DNA from: Candidatus Wukongarchaeum yapensis | Lineage (GTDB): Archaea > Asgardarchaeota > Wukongarchaeia > Wukongarchaeales > Wukongarchaeaceae | NCBI GenBank assembly: GCA_016840425.1 | Contig: JAEOSI010000054.1 | Span: forward strand, 1 to 11,383 | Reading direction: 5' to 3' | Length of the DNA stretch: 11,383 nucleotides | In this document: positions 2,742 through 10,730 of the stretch, one piece after another | Numbering within the stretch: position 1 is the first letter of the stretch | Layout: the number at the start of each line of letters is the position of its first letter | Program-made: the position numbers and the translations under genes | Notes under the pieces: model-generated | Told to the model about the DNA's origin: nothing | The model's input: the letters and a program-made list of their open reading frames with translations, nothing else | Database searches by the model: none

Positions 2742-3710
2742 TTGGTTAAAATGGTTGAAAATGCCCCCGTCATTGAAACGTTTAGAATTTCGAAAAACTA
2801 TGGCCTTGTCGAAGCAGTCAAAGATTTGACTGTTAGCATCCCGCAAGGGGGAACTGTTGGTCTGCTGGGTCCGAACGGCGCAGGAAAATCCACCACGATT
2901 AAATTGCTTTTAGGTTTGGTTAATCCTTCTCTCGGCGAAGGGAAGGTTTTAGGGATGGATATACGAACCAAGGGACTAGAAATACGGGATAGGGTAGGTT
3001 ATATGCCTGAACATGACTGTTTCATCGGTGACATCGATGCGGTTAAATATGTAATGCATCTTGGTCGTATGAATGGGATGTCTGTAGCAGATGCTCTTCG
3101 GAGAGCTCATGAGGTTCTTTATTATGTGGGGCTAGGGGAGTCTCGATATAGGAAAATTGAGACCTTTTCTTTGGGTATGAAGCAAAGAGTGAAGCTTGCC
3201 CAAGCTTTGGTTCATGATCCTGAACTGTTGATCCTTGATGAACCGACAACAGGAATGGATCCTGATGGTCGTATAGATATGCTTGAACTTATTAAAGATA
3301 TAGCAAAATGTGAAGATAAGACGTTGGTTATGTGTAGTCATATTCTTGCAGATGTTGAGAGGGTGTGTGATAGGGTAGTGATCATGAATAGGGGAAAGCT
3401 TGTTAGGACGGGATCTTTAAAAGAGCTGGTTGAAGGGAAAAAGGAGGCAATAATACTTCGCGTTAAAGGCGATTCAAACCTTTTGATTGATAAGTTTGAG
3501 AGGGAAGGAATTTCAGCTGAGTTGAGGGATGATGCAATCTTAGTTTTTGCGGGAAATAATCCCTCAATTAAGAAAAAGGTTATGGAAATAATGGCAGAAG
3601 CGAAGATGCAACTGAGATATTTTGGAAAGCCTACTGCTTCATTGGAAGACCTCTTTTTGTCAACTATTTCCTACGAAGAAGAAGCAGAGAGAGAAAAAGC
3701 AAGCATCTGA
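2742..3710 (+). CDS. ABC-2-type transporter ATP-binding subunit 1
   Basis: Walker A GPNGAGKST, Q-loop region GYMPE, signature FSLGMKQR, Walker B LLILDEPT, H-loop SH. The true start may be ATG 2751. Confidence 0.97.
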   Translation: MVKMVENAPVIETFRISKNYGLVEAVKDLTVSIPQGGTVGLLGPNGAGKSTTIKLLLGLVNPSLGEGKVLGMDIRTKGLEIRDRVGYMPEHDCFIGDIDAVKYVMHLGRMNGMSVADALRRAHEVLYYVGLGESRYRKIETFSLGMKQRVKLAQALVHDPELLILDEPTTGMDPDGRIDMLELIKDIAKCEDKTLVMCSHILADVERVCDRVVIMNRGKLVRTGSLKELVEGKKEAIILRVKGDSNLLIDKFEREGISAELRDDAILVFAGNNPSIKKKVMEIMAEAKMQLRYFGKPTASLEDLFLSTISYEEEAEREKASI

Positions 3711-3750
3711 AGGAGAAAAGTGTTGCCTTTGAAAGGAGGTTATGTTTCTT

Positions 3751-4620
3751 ATGAGTATTGAAAGTTTAGGTTATAAGGAGTGGGAGGGACAGAAACACGG
3801 TAGGTTTTACAAGGTTTTATCTTTGGTTGATTATGAGGTTAGGCATGCTTGGAGCAGTATTTGGGTTAAAATTCTCATAATTATAGCGTGGCTTCCTGTT
3901 TTAATCATATTTTTAGTGCCTGTAACGGAGATTAGTGAGGAAGGTGTTGATAGGGCGTTTTATAATCTTGTGAGTTTTACCACAAGTATAACAATTTGGC
4001 TCCCGATTATGGCTGGTTTGATTGGTGGGGGTTTGATTGCAAATGATAAAAATAACAAGATGTTTTCCATGTATTTTTCCCGCCCTCTAAGGCGAGAAGA
4101 TTATATCGCGGGGAAAGTTGGAGGTTTTGCTGTTTTAATGAGTATTCCCACCATCGTCCCTGCCCTCATTATTTATATCGTGCTTATCGGAAAATCAGAT
4201 CTTAGCCTTTTAGTTTTTATTAAAAAGTCTTGGTTGTTGGGAGCAGCTTGGCTTTACTTCATTTTATTGATAGCGCTCTTTGGTTCCCTTGTTCTGTTTC
4301 TTTCATCTGTGGTGACTGATTCAAAGTATGCTGTTGTTGGACTTTTCACCATAGTCATCTTGTCAGACCTTATAGCAAACCTTCTTTGGTTAGCTTCAGA
4401 TAACGAGATTTACCGACTGGGATCTTTAACTTTCAACTTAGAAAATATACTTGCAGAATTTTTAGGGATTGACCAATCAACTCTTCAGTTGGCTGATCAG
4501 CAAAATGGGGGGGTAGGTGGTTTGGTTTCTGCGTGGAAAAGTCTTGTAGTGATTGTTGGGATAACTAGTTTTATGTCGGTACTTACCCTTTTAAGGCTCT
4601 TATCTTTGGAAGAAGAATAA
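3751..4620 (+). CDS. ABC-2-type transporter permease 1
   Basis: About 6 hydrophobic segments; 'IANDKNNKMFSMYFSRPLRREDYIAGK' is the typical ABC-2 cytoplasmic loop. SD AGGAGGT at 3734-3740 is only 1 nt from ATG 3742 but 10 nt from ATG 3751, so 3751 is preferred. Confidence 0.93.
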   Translation: MSIESLGYKEWEGQKHGRFYKVLSLVDYEVRHAWSSIWVKILIIIAWLPVLIIFLVPVTEISEEGVDRAFYNLVSFTTSITIWLPIMAGLIGGGLIANDKNNKMFSMYFSRPLRREDYIAGKVGGFAVLMSIPTIVPALIIYIVLIGKSDLSLLVFIKKSWLLGAAWLYFILLIALFGSLVLFLSSVVTDSKYAVVGLFTIVILSDLIANLLWLASDNEIYRLGSLTFNLENILAEFLGIDQSTLQLADQQNGGVGGLVSAWKSLVVIVGITSFMSVLTLLRLLSLEEE

Positions 4621-4626
4621 GGTTGG

Positions 4627-5580
4627 ATGATGGTAAAAATGAGAACTATAGTGAGACTTGAAAATGTTTCAAAGTGGTTTGGCGAAGTTGTGGCAGTAAA
4701 CAATCTAACATGTGATCTAAAAGGAGGCATTACGGGATTTCTTGGCCCTAATGGGGCTGGTAAAACCACCACGCTTAAGATGATTAATGGGATTATTGCT
4801 CCAAACCTTGGAAGGGTGACTGTTTTTGGGGAAGATCCTTGGGATAATATGGAGTTGCGTAAAAAAATCGGTGTAGTTTTTGAGATGGGAAATCTTTACG
4901 ATTGGATGACGGGGGAAGATTTTGTTCGAACCATGGGAAGACTTAGCGGTTTGAGGAGTGAAGATCTTGATAAAGGTGTGGAAAGAGCTTTAAAAATCGC
5001 TAATCTATATGAGGCAAAAAACAGGAGATTAAAAGGGTACAGTCACGGGATGAGGCAGAAAATTAAGATTTCTCAGGCGATTGTCCATGACCCTCAAATC
5101 CTTATCTTAGATGAACCTTTAGGGGGTCTTGATCCCATATCAAGGAGGTATATATCGGATCTGATAAGGGATTGGGAGAAGGAAGGAAAAGATTTGATAA
5201 TGAGTTCTCACGTGCTTCATGAAGTAGAAGCTGTGGCTAAAAAGATCGTTCTACTCTTTCAAGGAAAACTCCTAGCACAGGGTAGTATAGAGGCGATTAG
5301 GCGTTTGATTGATGAGCGGCCTCACACGATAAAGGTGAAGATTGATAAGCCTAAAGAGTTTGTGAAAGAGATCCTTGAATATGATTTCATATCAAGCGTT
5401 GTGTTTTTGGATAAAGATTCCTTAATTGTGAGAACTAAGAATCCTGAGGAGTTTTACACAGTTTTCCCTCAAATAGTGGCTAATAAAGGGTTTGAAGTAG
5501 AGTTTATGGGGGTAACGGATGAGAGTTTAGAAGCCGTCTTTAAATATTTAACAATGAGGACTAAAAGAACGAGTATGTAG
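4627..5580 (+). CDS. ABC-2-type transporter ATP-binding subunit 2
   Basis: Walker A GPNGAGKTT, signature YSHGMRQK, Walker B ILILDEPL, H-loop SSH. Confidence 0.97.
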   Translation: MMVKMRTIVRLENVSKWFGEVVAVNNLTCDLKGGITGFLGPNGAGKTTTLKMINGIIAPNLGRVTVFGEDPWDNMELRKKIGVVFEMGNLYDWMTGEDFVRTMGRLSGLRSEDLDKGVERALKIANLYEAKNRRLKGYSHGMRQKIKISQAIVHDPQILILDEPLGGLDPISRRYISDLIRDWEKEGKDLIMSSHVLHEVEAVAKKIVLLFQGKLLAQGSIEAIRRLIDERPHTIKVKIDKPKEFVKEILEYDFISSVVFLDKDSLIVRTKNPEEFYTVFPQIVANKGFEVEFMGVTDESLEAVFKYLTMRTKRTSM

Positions 5581-5630
5581 GAAAGAAGTGTAGTAATAGG
5601 ATAGTAAAAAAAGAGAAAGGAAGGGTTAAA

Positions 5631-6485
5631 ATGAGAATGGAAACAGGAACAGGTTCCCGATTAAAAATGGTGAACGAGGTAAGTTATCGGCTAGAAATTT
5701 TCAAAATGACCCTTAGATCTTATGCTAAAGATAGAAAATCGTGGATTTTAGAGATTTTTCTTTTATTCCCTCTTTTTGTTATTTTCATAATTACTCGAAG
5801 GTACGCGGATGAGGATTATAGGGAGACTGCTCAATTTCTTGGCGAGGAAGCGGCGAAACAACAGGCTTTGGGAGATATAATGGATCTAACAATTTATCTT
5901 TATATGGTAATTTTAGCTATTTTTGTGACCATAGTCTTAGGAACCTCTTTGCTTGGAACTGAGAAAAACGATAAAACGATCTATTATATATTGACTAGGC
6001 CTATTCATCGATATGAAATTCCTTTGCAAAAATTTCCAGCATATTTAATCTTTTCAACAAGTCTTTTCATAGTACCTTTAACCCTTTTACATATGACGAT
6101 GATGTCGGTGGTCCCTGGATCTAATGCCTTCACGGGAATAGGACTTGTGCCAAAACTTATATTCATCGCCCTTTTGTGTAACGCAGCTTATGGCTCCATA
6201 TTCATGTTTATAGGGCTTATTTTAAAACGTCCACTCCTTGTAGCTCTGATTATAGGCTTTGCAGGAAATCTTTTAACCTCACTGATTTTCTCAGGAAGCA
6301 CACAAGCCCAAACAACGATACCCTACCATCTTGAAGTCATAGGGAAAAGCTTTGTATCCTCGGGCCAAATAGCGACTATGGAGACCTTTAACACCGCGTT
6401 AACGTCAGTATTAACCCTCATATCATTAACAGCGTTTTTTGTAGCCCTTACAAGCATGAAAATCCAAAAGCAAGATTTCGAATAA
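5631..6485 (+). CDS. ABC-2-type transporter permease 2
   Basis: About 6 TM segments; loop 'LGTEKNDKTIYYILTRPIHRYEI..QK' parallels the loop of permease 1. Confidence 0.93.
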   Translation: MRMETGTGSRLKMVNEVSYRLEIFKMTLRSYAKDRKSWILEIFLLFPLFVIFIITRRYADEDYRETAQFLGEEAAKQQALGDIMDLTIYLYMVILAIFVTIVLGTSLLGTEKNDKTIYYILTRPIHRYEIPLQKFPAYLIFSTSLFIVPLTLLHMTMMSVVPGSNAFTGIGLVPKLIFIALLCNAAYGSIFMFIGLILKRPLLVALIIGFAGNLLTSLIFSGSTQAQTTIPYHLEVIGKSFVSSGQIATMETFNTALTSVLTLISLTAFFVALTSMKIQKQDFE

Positions 6486-7479: not shown

Positions 7480-7734
7480 TCAATCTTCTTCATTTTTCTC
7501 TTTTTCTTCTTTCGCTCCTTTCTTTTCTTCAATGGTTTTGATTTTTTCTTCTATTTTTCTAAGCCTGTTTTCAAACACCATTTTTATAAATTCAAGCAGT
7601 TTGATCTCTTCCTCTGGGGAAAGGATTTGAGGCAGGTCTTCGTCGCGGGCGAATAACAGCCATTTTTTAAACCAAGGACCTAAAAAAGGACCTAAAAATC
7701 TATCATACCAATAAGGCCTAAATTCATCCATCAT
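7480..7734 (-). CDS. Small protein with aromatic/Pro N-terminus and C-terminal coiled coil (DUF5320-like)
   Basis: Its start (ATG 7734 or 7731) overlaps the 3' end of padR. The C-terminal motif SPEEEIKLLE..K..FE..L..IEEKI..I resembles the DUF5320 tail from memory; the family call is tentative. Confidence 0.75.
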   Translation of the reverse strand: MMDEFRPYWYDRFLGPFLGPWFKKWLLFARDEDLPQILSPEEEIKLLEFIKMVFENRLRKIEEKIKTIEEKKGAKEEKEKNEED

Positions 7735-8419
7735 TTCCAACCTCTTTTTCTGCTTCTTCTACCTCTTCCCTTGCCTCTTCTTCTACCTCAATTTTTACTA
7801 ATTTAGATTCGTCTATTTTAAAGCTTAATTTGTCAATCTTTCGTTCTAGCTTCTCAATCTCCTTTTTTAATAATGTTTTACGTTTTTTAAGCGAGTCTAG
7901 GTAGTCTTTTTCTTCTTCTTTTTCTTCTTCTTCGTGTCTTTTGTAAAGATGTTCAGGGAAACTTGTTTTTAGGGCTGATCTTAAACTTTCAATAGCGGTT
8001 TGCATTGCAGATTTTACGGTGTATTTGGTGAACTTTCCGATCTCTTTTCCTAAATGTTCCCAATAATGAGATTGGAAAGCTATTTCTTCTTCAAATTCGT
8101 CCATGAAACGGTCTTCTTGAAAGACCTCTTCTAAAACCTTTTCGCCTTTTTCTGTTATTTCGTACAGAAGTTTATCAGGGACATCTTCCTGTGCTATCTT
8201 GCCTTTTTCCGCGATCAAGCCCTTTTCTTTTAGCTTGTGGAGGGCTGGATAAAGGGTTCCGGACTTTAGCTTCCATAGTCCTGCGAATTCGTTATCTAAC
8301 TCTTTTAGTATGTCGTAGCCGTGGGCTGGTTCTTTTGTTAGTTTAAGAAGTATTAGTATTTGTATTGGGGTGATTTTTCCTGCGCTTGTTTGAATTCCTT
8401 TTTTTCTTAACCAGAACAT
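7724..8419 (-). CDS. PadR-family transcriptional regulator with extended acidic/coiled-coil C-terminus
   Basis: ILILLKL..EPAHGYDILKEL......W.LKSGTLYPALHKLKEKGLI.......KLLYEITEKG is the PadR wHTH signature. SD AAGGTG lies just upstream of the ATG. Confidence 0.95.
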   Translation of the reverse strand: MFWLRKKGIQTSAGKITPIQILILLKLTKEPAHGYDILKELDNEFAGLWKLKSGTLYPALHKLKEKGLIAEKGKIAQEDVPDKLLYEITEKGEKVLEEVFQEDRFMDEFEEEIAFQSHYWEHLGKEIGKFTKYTVKSAMQTAIESLRSALKTSFPEHLYKRHEEEEKEEEKDYLDSLKKRKTLLKKEIEKLERKIDKLSFKIDESKLVKIEVEEEAREEVEEAEKEVGNDG

Positions 8420-8612: not shown

Positions 8613-10730
8613 CTAACGAAACTCAAAAGAAACTAACCCCTGCCCATCCTTTTTCGTAGGAATTTTGGGAGGGTTATTCAGTTTTTCTGTTCCTTTTTCC
8701 CCCGATTTTATTTTTTCTAGAGTTTCTTTTACACTTTCTCGAAAGCAGTATTCTTCATCATTCAAAACTTGTTTGAGGGTCTCTATTGCTGCTTCTCCTA
8801 CTTTTGCCACTTTCCTCCATTCTCCCCTTGCTAATAGGTAGTAGGCTTTTTCTAGGTCGTTTGCAGGCTTCCACCCTAATTTTTCAAGAACTCTTACTAC
8901 TCCAAATCGAACATAGCAATCTTCATCCTTGAGAGCCTCAATAAGAGGTTTTAAAGCCCTTTTGCCACCTATTTTTCCAAGAGCCCACACCGCGCCATCT
9001 CGAACTGTGGAATCCCGATCTTTTAACGCTTTTACGAGAGGTTCTACCGCCCTTTTGCCACCTATTTTTCCAAGAACCTCCGCTGCTACTCTTCTAGCAT
9101 ACCTATTTTCATCCTTCAAAGCTTGGAGGAGGAGGTCAACAGTACTGCTATCTCCTATCTTTCGAAGGGCCCATGCTGCTCTCCTTCGAACATCACGATT
9201 TTCATCCTTCAAAGCTTGAATGAGAGGTTCAGCGGCCCTAACATCCCCTATAGCGCCAAGGGCCCATACCACGGCTCTTCGAACACCTTCATCTTCCTCT
9301 TCATCTTTCAGAGCCTGGCCGAGGGCTTCTACCGCCGGCTCTCCTATCTTTTCTAGAGCTTCTGCTGCCCACCATCGAATATAATTATTCTCATCCTTCA
9401 AAGCCTGAATGAGCTGTTCTACTGCCGGCTCTCCTATCTTAACAAGGGCCTCTGCTGCTCTCCACTGAACATCACTATCTTCATCATTTAAAGCCTGAAT
9501 TAAAGGTTTTATTGCCCTTGAATCCCCTATCTCTCCAAGAATCCATGCTGCTAACCTTCGAACGTCCCTATTTTCTACTTTCAAGATTTGAGTAAAATTG
9601 TTCAATATTTCAACTATACATCCCCATCTTAAAAAGATTAAATTATCAAAATTTGAAAAGGTGGAAACATTTCCTTCCCACCCTTTTTCAAATATATGGC
9701 CAAAATTTAACGTGAATAAAGAAGCCATATCTTTTAAGAAAAGCTCAGCTTTTTCTGGTAGAAGTTCGGGTTCAGCTAGCGTAACAAAAAGTAAGGCTAC
9801 CGTTTTAAATCTTTGCTTCAAACAGTAAAAGCTTGCTCCTTCTAGTTTTAAATGGTTTACTTCTCCACCGCCAACTTCTCTAGCAAATAGATTTATAGCA
9901 GAAAGAAGGCTACCTAACATCTCCAACTTTTGTTCATCTGCGCGCAGCTTTTTCGGCTGTGTCGCGTAGTTAAATATGCAAATTCCACCTTCAGTAAGAA
10001 TGAAAACGGCGTGTATCTCATCGAATATTTCTTTCCTTTTTTGTAATGTAAGCATATCAGACATCAAGAGTTCAGCCCATGCTACGTCTCTTCGAACATC
10101 ACGATTTTCATCCTTCAAAGCTTGGATGAGAGGTTCAACAGCCCTAGCATTCCCTATAGCGTCAAGGGCCCATGCTGCGTCTCTTCGAACACCTTCCTCT
10201 TCATCTTTCAGAGCCTGGCTGAGGGCTTCTACCGCCGGTTTTCCTATCTTTTCTAGAGTTTCTGCTGCCCCCCACTGAATATAGCCATTCTCATCCTTCA
10301 AAATCTTAATGAGCTGTTCTACTGCCGGCTCTCCTATCTTAACAAGGGCCTCTGCTGCTCTCCACTGAACATCACTATCTTCATCATTTAAAGCCTGAAT
10401 TAGAGGTTTTATTGCCCTTGAATCCCCTATCTCTCCAAGAATCCATGCTACTAGCCTTCGAACGTCCTTATTTCCTACTTTTAAAGCTCGTAGGAGGAGA
10501 TCAACCGCCGGTTCTCTTATCTTTTCAAGAGCATCTGTTGCTTCAAATCGAACCTCTAAATCTTCATCTTCCAGAGATTGAATAAGGGGTTCTACAGCCC
10601 TAACATCCCCTATCTCACCAAGAGCAAATGCCGCTTCCCTTCTAACATACCTATCTTTTTCTTTCAAAGCCTGGATGAAAGGTTCTACTGCCTGCTCCCC
10701 TATCATAGCAAGAGTAACAGCTGAAACCAT
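8613..10730 (-). CDS. PBS-lyase-type HEAT-repeat protein with an internal longin-like domain (705 aa)
   Basis: Many 30-31-aa repeats (AVEPLIQALKDED..VR..AA.ALG.IG) and a C-terminal LGWKP...Y.LA..EW motif seen in archaeal HEAT proteins. A non-repeat insert occupies roughly aa 220-382. SD GGGGAG lies 8 nt before the ATG. Confidence 0.93.
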   Translation of the reverse strand: MVSAVTLAMIGEQAVEPFIQALKEKDRYVRREAAFALGEIGDVRAVEPLIQSLEDEDLEVRFEATDALEKIREPAVDLLLRALKVGNKDVRRLVAWILGEIGDSRAIKPLIQALNDEDSDVQWRAAEALVKIGEPAVEQLIKILKDENGYIQWGAAETLEKIGKPAVEALSQALKDEEEGVRRDAAWALDAIGNARAVEPLIQALKDENRDVRRDVAWAELLMSDMLTLQKRKEIFDEIHAVFILTEGGICIFNYATQPKKLRADEQKLEMLGSLLSAINLFAREVGGGEVNHLKLEGASFYCLKQRFKTVALLFVTLAEPELLPEKAELFLKDMASLFTLNFGHIFEKGWEGNVSTFSNFDNLIFLRWGCIVEILNNFTQILKVENRDVRRLAAWILGEIGDSRAIKPLIQALNDEDSDVQWRAAEALVKIGEPAVEQLIQALKDENNYIRWWAAEALEKIGEPAVEALGQALKDEEEDEGVRRAVVWALGAIGDVRAAEPLIQALKDENRDVRRRAAWALRKIGDSSTVDLLLQALKDENRYARRVAAEVLGKIGGKRAVEPLVKALKDRDSTVRDGAVWALGKIGGKRALKPLIEALKDEDCYVRFGVVRVLEKLGWKPANDLEKAYYLLARGEWRKVAKVGEAAIETLKQVLNDEEYCFRESVKETLEKIKSGEKGTEKLNNPPKIPTKKDGQGLVSFEFR
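8956..9075. repeat. Exact 27-bp repeat pair at HEAT period (93 nt)
   Basis: GCCCTTTTGCCACCTATTTTTCCAAGA occurs at 8956-8982 and 9049-9075. Confidence 0.95.
9169..9584. repeat. Long direct repeat, copy B (416 bp)
   Basis: Aligns to 10075-10484 at an offset of 900 (906 before a 6-nt indel near 9291-9296). About 34 mismatches by hand count. 9408-9549 versus 10308-10449 has a single mismatch in 142 bp. Confidence 0.97.
9636..10016 (-). other. Predicted longin-like domain (aa ~239-365 of the HEAT protein)
   Basis: Pattern beta(IHAVFILT)-G-beta(ICIFNY)-alpha(LEMLGSLLSAINLFAREV)-beta(VNHLKL)-beta(FYCLKQ)-beta(ALLFVT)-alpha(AELFLKDMASLFTLNF)-WEGNVSTFSNFDNLI. This fits the bb-a-bbb-aa longin topology and the F..F...W.G....F..F...I tail of archaeal longins. 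Confidence 0.8.
10075..10484. repeat. Long direct repeat, copy A (410 bp)
   Basis: See copy B. For example, lines 9421-9480 and 10321-10380 are identical. Confidence 0.97.

Follow-up and report, generated by a model that had tools for sequence, protein, structure and literature searches.

Asgard archaea encode multidomain longin proteins, among them longin-GTPase, longin-TRAPPC3 and NPRL2-like fusions, and extensive domain shuffling of their longin-type proteins has been described (Liu et al. 2020, 10.1101/2020.10.19.343400; Tran et al. 2024, PMC10933270). Here, we analyzed a stretch of 11,383 nucleotides (nt) from Candidatus Wukongarchaeum yapensis (contig JAEOSI010000054.1; hereafter the window, in whose forward-strand numbering all coordinates are given), where an open reading frame (ORF) of 705 amino acids (aa) on the minus strand, P0001, carries a longin domain inside an array of HEAT repeats of the phycobilisome (PBS)-lyase type. 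Like the described Asgard proteins, it joins a longin to unrelated domains in a lineage-specific architecture. Unlike them, its partner is a PBS-lyase HEAT array, the longin is nested rather than terminal, and the parent gene and both breakpoints are still visible. No HEAT-longin-HEAT protein was found in the literature searched, nor any other HEAT-nested longin among the relatives found; thus, what appears to be new is the nesting of a longin in a HEAT array, whereas lineage-specific Asgard longin fusions were known already. Overall, we consider it probable that the ORF encodes a genuine fusion protein of a Wukongarchaeum-type Asgard archaeon, which arose by one traceable rearrangement and has been kept since; more tentatively, it would serve as a scaffold that displays a longin.

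Three other described systems resemble parts of this protein. The first longin of MON1, FUZ and HPS1 (Pfam PF19036) is the nearest relative of the insert in profile searches, with MON1 longin domain 1 (LD1; PDB 8c7g_C) as the best match of its family profile (E value of 2.9e-5), and the predicted structure aligns with MON1-CCZ1, CPLANE and BLOC-3 at Z scores of 12 to 13. However, the tri-longin subunits of Rab guanine nucleotide exchange factors (MON1/CCZ1, FUZ/INTU and HPS1/HPS4) carry three longins in tandem, whereas there is one longin here and the rest is HEAT; the 272-aa parent protein described below has room for two domains at most. Also unlike those systems, no Rab gene lies near the fusion. 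The core complexes of the adaptor proteins (AP) and COPI likewise combine the longin fold with an alpha-solenoid, and the insert matches their sigma, mu-N, zeta and delta longins in structure. Yet adaptors consist of separate polypeptides in an old, conserved complex, whereas the present protein is one recent chain with non-adaptin HEAT repeats. Finally, both arms are built of the repeat type of the PBS-lyase HEAT-like proteins (PF03130; CpcE/CpcF, NblB and uncharacterized archaeal paralogues), although the fusion scores far under the cut-offs for CpcE, CpcF and NblB and, unlike the other family members found, contains an inserted domain.

A Pfam scan of the 705-aa protein returned HEAT_2 (360 bits) and HEAT_PBS (271.9 bits against a cut-off of 20.9, in 13 stretches), both on either side of the insert, and the multiple repeats of about 31 aa above the gathering score place the protein among the PBS-lyase HEAT-like proteins. 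No Pfam family matched aa 215 to 390 at an E value of 0.2 or below, nor did any NCBIfam model match there. The N-terminal arm closes on a half repeat (..DVRRDVAWA). An earlier reading of the letters alone (the sequence-only reading) had reported that some 160 non-repeat residues break an otherwise pure HEAT array, and the scan bears this out, with the gap at aa 223 to 386. It had also held that the repeats are not adaptin orthologues. Indeed, the best stretch of Adaptin_N (PF01602) spans profile positions 81 to 183 only, about 100 of 524, and at 49.9 bits falls far below HEAT_2 and HEAT_PBS; a match along most of the 524-position trunk profile, as expected of an adaptin or COPI large subunit, was not seen. 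Judged from these profiles, the repeats are of the PBS-lyase type and not adaptin. Since the NCBIfam scores for CpcE (179, cut-off 330), CpcF (131, cut-off 220) and NblB (169, cut-off 300) are so far under their cut-offs, the protein does not qualify as a bilin lyase.

The origin of the insert was traced by an exhaustive search of 1.84 billion representative proteins, which gave one close cluster and 25 remote relatives, with the domain N-terminal in all of them. The close cluster consists of standalone 272-aa proteins that start exactly where the insert starts (MSEIPTVQKRKEIFD, compared with MSDMLTLQKRKEIFD from M223 of the fusion) and whose homology to it ends exactly at the end of the insert (..NNFAQILKVE). 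The window's own genome keeps a full-length 272-aa parent on another contig (C257:1190-2008), made up of an N-terminal longin and a 108-aa C-terminal domain without family assignment. Over the shared part (G000:C257:1190-1681), insert and parent are 78 to 79% identical in protein and only 88% identical in DNA, indicating that the insert is a locus separate from the standalone gene.

Both junctions can be read at the level of single codons. The 5' junction runs from the HEAT codons GCA TGG GCT into GAA CTC TTG ATG, 12 nt (GAACTCTTGATG) that exactly match the leader and start codon of the standalone gene carried by a sister genome (L017), so that the junction-spanning peptide reads ..AAWAELLMSDMLTLQK. 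The captured leader is about 9 to 12 nt long and DNA homology to the parent begins within it; the parental Shine-Dalgarno-like GGTG (-13 to -8) lies beyond the breakpoint and was lost from the fusion. At the 3' junction, the longin codons AAA GTA GAA A run into the HEAT codons AT AGG GAC GTT (peptide ..QILKVENRDVR), and the breakpoint falls in a short stretch common to both sources (AAAGTAGAAA). Since the upstream HEAT copy (copy A in Table 1) has AAA GTA GGA AAT in the corresponding position, the crossover may have involved up to about 10 nt of common sequence. We also observed that these codons, at window positions 10470 to 10484 (LKVGN), encode KVGN, where the uninterrupted paralogue described below has AAG GAT GAA AAT (KDEN); the KVGN codons of copy A reflect either ancestral crossover homology or sequence copied back from the junction by conversion.

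Table 1. Parts of the fusion ORF and the direct repeats around its insert, by position in the window
Feature	Position	Strand	Basis or remark
Fusion ORF P0001: HEAT arm, longin, HEAT arm, C-terminal tail	8613..10730	-	705 aa, stop-free translation
N-terminal HEAT arm, aa 1-219, about 7 PBS-lyase-type repeats	10074..10730	-	Pfam HEAT_2, HEAT_PBS
Linker ELL (GAA CTC TTG), the translated 5' leader captured from the parental gene	10065..10073	-	DNA alignment
Longin domain, aa 223-386 (164 aa), copy of parental codons 1-164	9573..10064	-	Identity, AlphaFold2, VIA-align, profile matches
C-terminal HEAT arm, aa 387 to about 641, about 8 repeats	8808..9572	-	Restart at a full repeat (NRDVRRLAAWILGEIGD)
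Non-HEAT C-terminal tail (aa about 642-705) and stop codon	8613..8807	-	Absent from the 592-aa orthologue
Direct repeat copy A, HEAT codons about 83-219	10075..10484	-	Repeat search of the window
Direct repeat copy B, HEAT codons about 383-521, starting just inside the longin end	9169..9584	-	Repeat search of the window

Direct repeats of about 410 bp, 90.5% identical overall, lie on both sides of the insert. Their first 150 nt (10335 to 10484 compared with 9435 to 9584) are 97 to 100% identical in the window, which suggests recent gene conversion between copies A and B in the window's lineage. In a diverged orthologue of the fusion (L020), the two copies are 85% identical to each other and about 93% identical to their window counterparts; because they are closer to those counterparts than to each other, the duplication predates the split of the two fusion lineages. 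A 321-aa HEAT paralogue without insert (contig C34; L018:1738-2703) has the same N-terminus (MVS.VTLAMIGEQ), also present in the L020 orthologue, and therefore likely shows the ancestral state. Taken together, these features indicate that the parental leader and codons 1 to 164, the whole N-terminal longin, were copied into the middle of a HEAT-repeat gene, with about 410 bp of the HEAT target duplicated around the insert. The simplest route would be a single two-jump template switch during replication, first from the HEAT gene to the longin gene and then back into a part of the HEAT gene that had already been copied; a pair of illegitimate recombinations, one after the other, would fit as well. 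We infer one or the other mechanism from the layout of the junctions and repeats. As read from these comparisons, the architecture is neither old nor widespread; it is restricted to one lineage and was produced when part of a paralogous gene was captured, in an event that can still be traced.

To be a property of the organism, the arrangement must be real in the DNA, and several sources agree that it is. Logan contigs, which are assembled run by run and here came from samples including marine sediment of 2017, seawater of 2021 and sediment of 2025, cross the 3' junction in four runs, one from each of four studies (for example, X1 over 9520 to 9854 with 0 mismatches and X4 over 9522 to 9884 with 1 mismatch) and the 5' junction in three runs (X1 and X2 over 9904 to 10119, X6 over 9904 to 10127). 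The bridging contigs carry 0 to 7 mismatches, and one zero-mismatch run may be the source sample. In addition, five 705-aa proteins of NCBI, JGI and ENA assemblies belong to the protein cluster at 90% identity, one of them named as a HEAT-repeat protein of a Candidatus Wukongarchaeota archaeon, and so does the 592-aa L020 orthologue, which is 88% identical, keeps the HEAT-longin-HEAT order and is found, as in the window, upstream of the PadR gene; the fusion ORF occurs in six assemblies or more. A candidate excised form, a joint of 9539 to 10111 present in all four runs, was rejected: its sides measure 33 nt, it contains 37 foreign letters, and it matches a paralogue's HEAT unit. In one deposited assembly (L021:1-2027, GCA_030587675.2), the contig end shows a longin tail, a hybrid B/A HEAT block, a second longin and HEAT, after which the frame breaks into pieces of 390 and 275 aa; this order may come from an assembly loop through the 410-bp repeats or from real tandem amplification by unequal crossing-over.

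We next consider the fold of the insert. Alone, it matched no Pfam or NCBIfam model, and the sequence link to longins runs through its relatives. In an alignment of 30 sequences (the insert, 4 standalone homologues and the 25 remote relatives), 12 matched Fuz_longin_1 (best E value of 3.9e-7) and 5 matched Longin, mostly below gathering scores in both cases, with Sybindin, Intu_longin_1, SRP-alpha_N or Clat_adaptor_s matched by others. Besides MON1, the family profile found BET5/TRAPPC1 in the PDB (E value of 1e-3), with VAMP7 longin, SRX and AP mu as further matches. A single-sequence AlphaFold2 (AF2) model of aa 205 to 400 was unusable, with a predicted local distance difference test score (pLDDT) of 40, and was replaced by a model of the insert based on a 36-row alignment (pLDDT of 82.3, predicted template modeling score of 0.78). 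In this model, the elements follow one another as a0-b1-b2-a1-b3-b4-b5-a2-a3 (H2-15, E17-24, E29-34, H44-65, E71-73, E78-85, E90-97, H103-127 and H139-163), which is the longin topology with one extra N-terminal helix, H2-15.

When the AF2 model was compared with 48,161 chains by VIA-align, ranks 1 to 19 were held by longins only, with Z scores of 12 to 14 over 125 to 139 residues, above all other folds. Trs23 came out at 14.1 (root mean square deviation of 2.9 over 129 aligned residues), followed by CPLANE (13.2), BLOC-3 (13.1), delta-COP (12.7) and MON1A-CCZ1 (12.7). The best roadblock protein, MglB, reached 11.4 over 109 residues, and roadblocks align only over residues 10 to 126. Among the models of Swiss-Prot entries, the matches were TRAPPC4, AP sigma, COPI zeta and Bet5. 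In Foldseek, roadblock and longin matches were intermixed at E values of about 1e-4 and were not separated, and the model does have an N-terminal helix, as in the roadblock order a1-b1-b2-a2-b3-b4-b5, where the two C-terminal helices of longins are lacking; no relative matched Robl_LC7 among the 25 Pfam families most frequent in the relatives. Thus, the longin pattern that the sequence-only reading had seen in the insert is upheld by the family profile, the order of elements and the VIA-align ranks, while its expectation that a fold search would return longins held for the profile search and VIA-align and in part for Foldseek, which mixed the two folds. On sequence and model, we identify the insert as a longin domain that has an additional N-terminal helix and is nearest in sequence to the LD1 type of MON1 and FUZ. 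Of the 301 Asgard genomes searched, 299 have its family, for the most part in the form of free proteins of about 140 aa.

The changes since capture suggest that the fused longin has been maintained. Between the window and L020, the insert differs by 10 nonsynonymous and 8 synonymous changes, giving a ratio of nonsynonymous to synonymous rates (dN/dS) of 0.32 (one-sided binomial P = 0.02), and the N-terminal HEAT arm gives 0.27 in the same comparison. Fixed differences from the parent are concentrated in a0 (4 of 14 positions), b5 and the next loop (5 of 13) and a3 (7 of 25), with none at the 39 positions of b1, b2, a1 and b3; all four family-invariant residues (G27, A56, F60 and F117) are kept. 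The altered terminal helices reflect either adaptation to new neighbors or the loss of the parent's C-terminal domain. In the nucleotide tree, the fusion branch attaches to the node that lies between the standalone genes of two sister lineages and the standalone genes of the window's own species, which gives the capture about the age of this small genus-level group, and a burst of change came after it. Judged from these alignments, the product has remained open in two or more diverged lineages and evolves there under purifying selection.

As to its role, the protein would be a scaffold of two alpha-solenoid arms that presents a single longin between them as a protein-binding module. This longin would still bind the parental partner, either the partner of a longin/roadblock dimer or a small GTPase, and would thereby couple it to whatever the HEAT arms hold. 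That the parental partner is retained is the likeliest course for the longin because its core (b1, b2, a1 and b3) is unchanged from the parent; even so, we put forward partner binding and the scaffold role only tentatively. The link to a GTPase comes from general knowledge of the longin fold and from nothing beyond it. A working single-chain platform of solenoid and longin, docking a small GTPase or a longin/roadblock partner between the HEAT arms, is improbable in our estimate.

The neighborhood of the parent offers candidate partners. In five assemblies (L005:1190-2945, which is the own C257, and L001, L002, L003 and L017), the parent gene lies between CutA1 upstream and phosphoglucomutase downstream, and in four of the five it is directly followed by a gene of 265 or 273 aa. 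Because the N-terminus of the 273-aa neighbor weakly matches the longin profile (hhalign E value of 1e-4, probability of 58%), a longin-longin pair is a candidate partner set. A complex prediction of the insert with the 273-aa neighbor scored 0.01 against a mark of 0.32, with the partner folded without an alignment, and so counts neither for nor against such a pair. In a feature search, the parent's C-terminal 108 aa scored at most 0.83, with roadblock-type families as weak leads only. The parent and the 265- or 273-aa gene after it may form a pair of two-domain longin proteins.

Several observations weigh against a genuine, maintained, longin-displaying scaffold. The fusion lacks the parent's C-terminal 108-aa domain, and parental function may for that reason not be retained. 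Among the relatives, it was found in the Wukongarchaeum-type lineage only, both in the protein search and in the 301 Asgard genomes. No small GTPase, roadblock or trafficking gene lies in the window, and the public runs that hold the locus list no RNA run and thus give no evidence of expression. The selection test on the insert draws on 18 substitutions only. Moreover, the two fusion inserts form a clade of their own on a long branch (0.10 substitutions per site), and this stem has a dN/dS of about 0.4 by a three-point estimate, compared with 0.13 to 0.27 among standalone orthologues; the long stem and its high ratio point to relaxed constraint or adaptation right after the event.

Some of these points are also expected if the fusion is a functionless, tolerated by-product in which a modular HEAT array carries a longin passenger that has not yet decayed. 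Such a view would account for the narrow distribution, for the raised ratio on the stem and for a gene neighborhood that hints at no function, and the 410-bp flanking repeats make the locus prone to recombination. A same-genus genome (G001) shows the standalone copy only, but this absence is uninformative because the PadR orthologue there (L022, G001:C70:3-593) sits at the first bases of its contig, so that the break falls exactly where the HEAT or fusion gene would be expected. A decaying passenger is hard to square, however, with an ORF that is unbroken in six or more assemblies and in an orthologue whose protein sequence differs by 12%, with a dN/dS after fusion close to that of the HEAT arm, or with core secondary-structure elements free of fixed change, and we regard it as rather unlikely. 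Another view builds on the sequence-only reading, which had suggested a scaffold for small GTPases or an independently evolved adaptor-like architecture: a single-chain analogue of AP/COPI adaptors, with the longin packed on the solenoid and the protein as a platform for a small GTPase. The insert does resemble the longins of AP sigma and mu-N, COPI zeta and delta and TRAPP, its family is nearly universal in the Asgard genomes searched, and Asgard longins are fused to GTPases in other proteins (PMC10933270). Against this stand the PBS-lyase type of the repeats, with Adaptin_N covering about 100 of 524 positions, and an architecture that is young and derived from a rearrangement rather than inherited; furthermore, no GTPase gene lies beside the fusion, the parent or the three distant relatives examined, the nearest one seen being about 7 kb from the parent on one contig. 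An adaptor analogue is therefore a quite improbable description of this protein.

Two further alternatives concern the gene itself. Because the parental ATG and 9 to 12 nt of leader were kept in frame, translation might start also, or only, at M223 and give a 483-aa longin-HEAT protein. In both fusion lineages, though, the GGTG is replaced by HEAT sequence (TGGGCT or TGGACT), and the 222 codons upstream are open and evolve at the dN/dS of 0.27 given above, making such a start very unlikely. An assembly chimera, in which a HEAT gene was wrongly joined to a longin gene, could be suspected from the richness of the gene in repeats and from the L021 assembly, which breaks and loops inside it, and the sequence-only reading had named this as a way in which it would fail. 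Nevertheless, separately assembled contigs of several runs and studies span both junctions, both junctions are in frame, and the insert, at 88% DNA identity to its own standalone copy, must come from a separate locus; the chance of a chimera is close to nil, and the contiguous ORF can be accepted as real. We thus favor a genuine, retained fusion that may act as a longin-displaying scaffold.

The remaining surroundings of the gene were also surveyed. On the plus strand, the window holds two tandem pairs of an ABC ATPase and an ABC-2 permease (322 and 292 aa, then 317 and 284 aa; 2742 to 6485), and a PadR-family regulator (7724 to 8419, minus strand) lies between them and the fusion gene. PadR also adjoins the fusion gene in L020 and L021, and the window contains in addition a gene for an SPFH protein. 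The neighborhoods of three distant relatives (P0006, P0021 and P0009, two of them on very short contigs) showed no GTPase or HEAT gene. Many PBS-lyase HEAT paralogues are present in the own genome, and none of the other members of the HEAT family found has an inserted domain. An open frame of 718 aa in another Asgard genome (L030:415-2505, G051:C28) was considered as a second HEAT fusion and rejected, since it encodes a 696-aa protein with an N-terminal longin and a helical, non-HEAT remainder; the region after its longin is long and helical and is probably a coiled coil.

Heavy shuffling of eukaryote-like domains is known in Asgard genomes, although single events can seldom be observed. At this locus, all the pieces have been preserved: the donor gene, an uninterrupted recipient paralogue, both breakpoints, the flanking duplication and a second lineage that shows constraint. 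The fusion by itself says nothing on the origin of adaptors or of membrane trafficking and is not evidence for an adaptor-like machine. Should the protein work as a platform, it would represent a recent and independent Asgard reinvention of the pairing of solenoid and longin seen in eukaryotic adaptor and coat complexes, and one that can be compared directly with its free ancestral parts, as the genome retains them. Overall, the locus provides a clean worked example of a longin module entering a new protein context, in which the birth of an architecture can be read from the DNA, and a natural experiment, in which one longin exists both on its own and within a scaffold, for asking what such longins bind.

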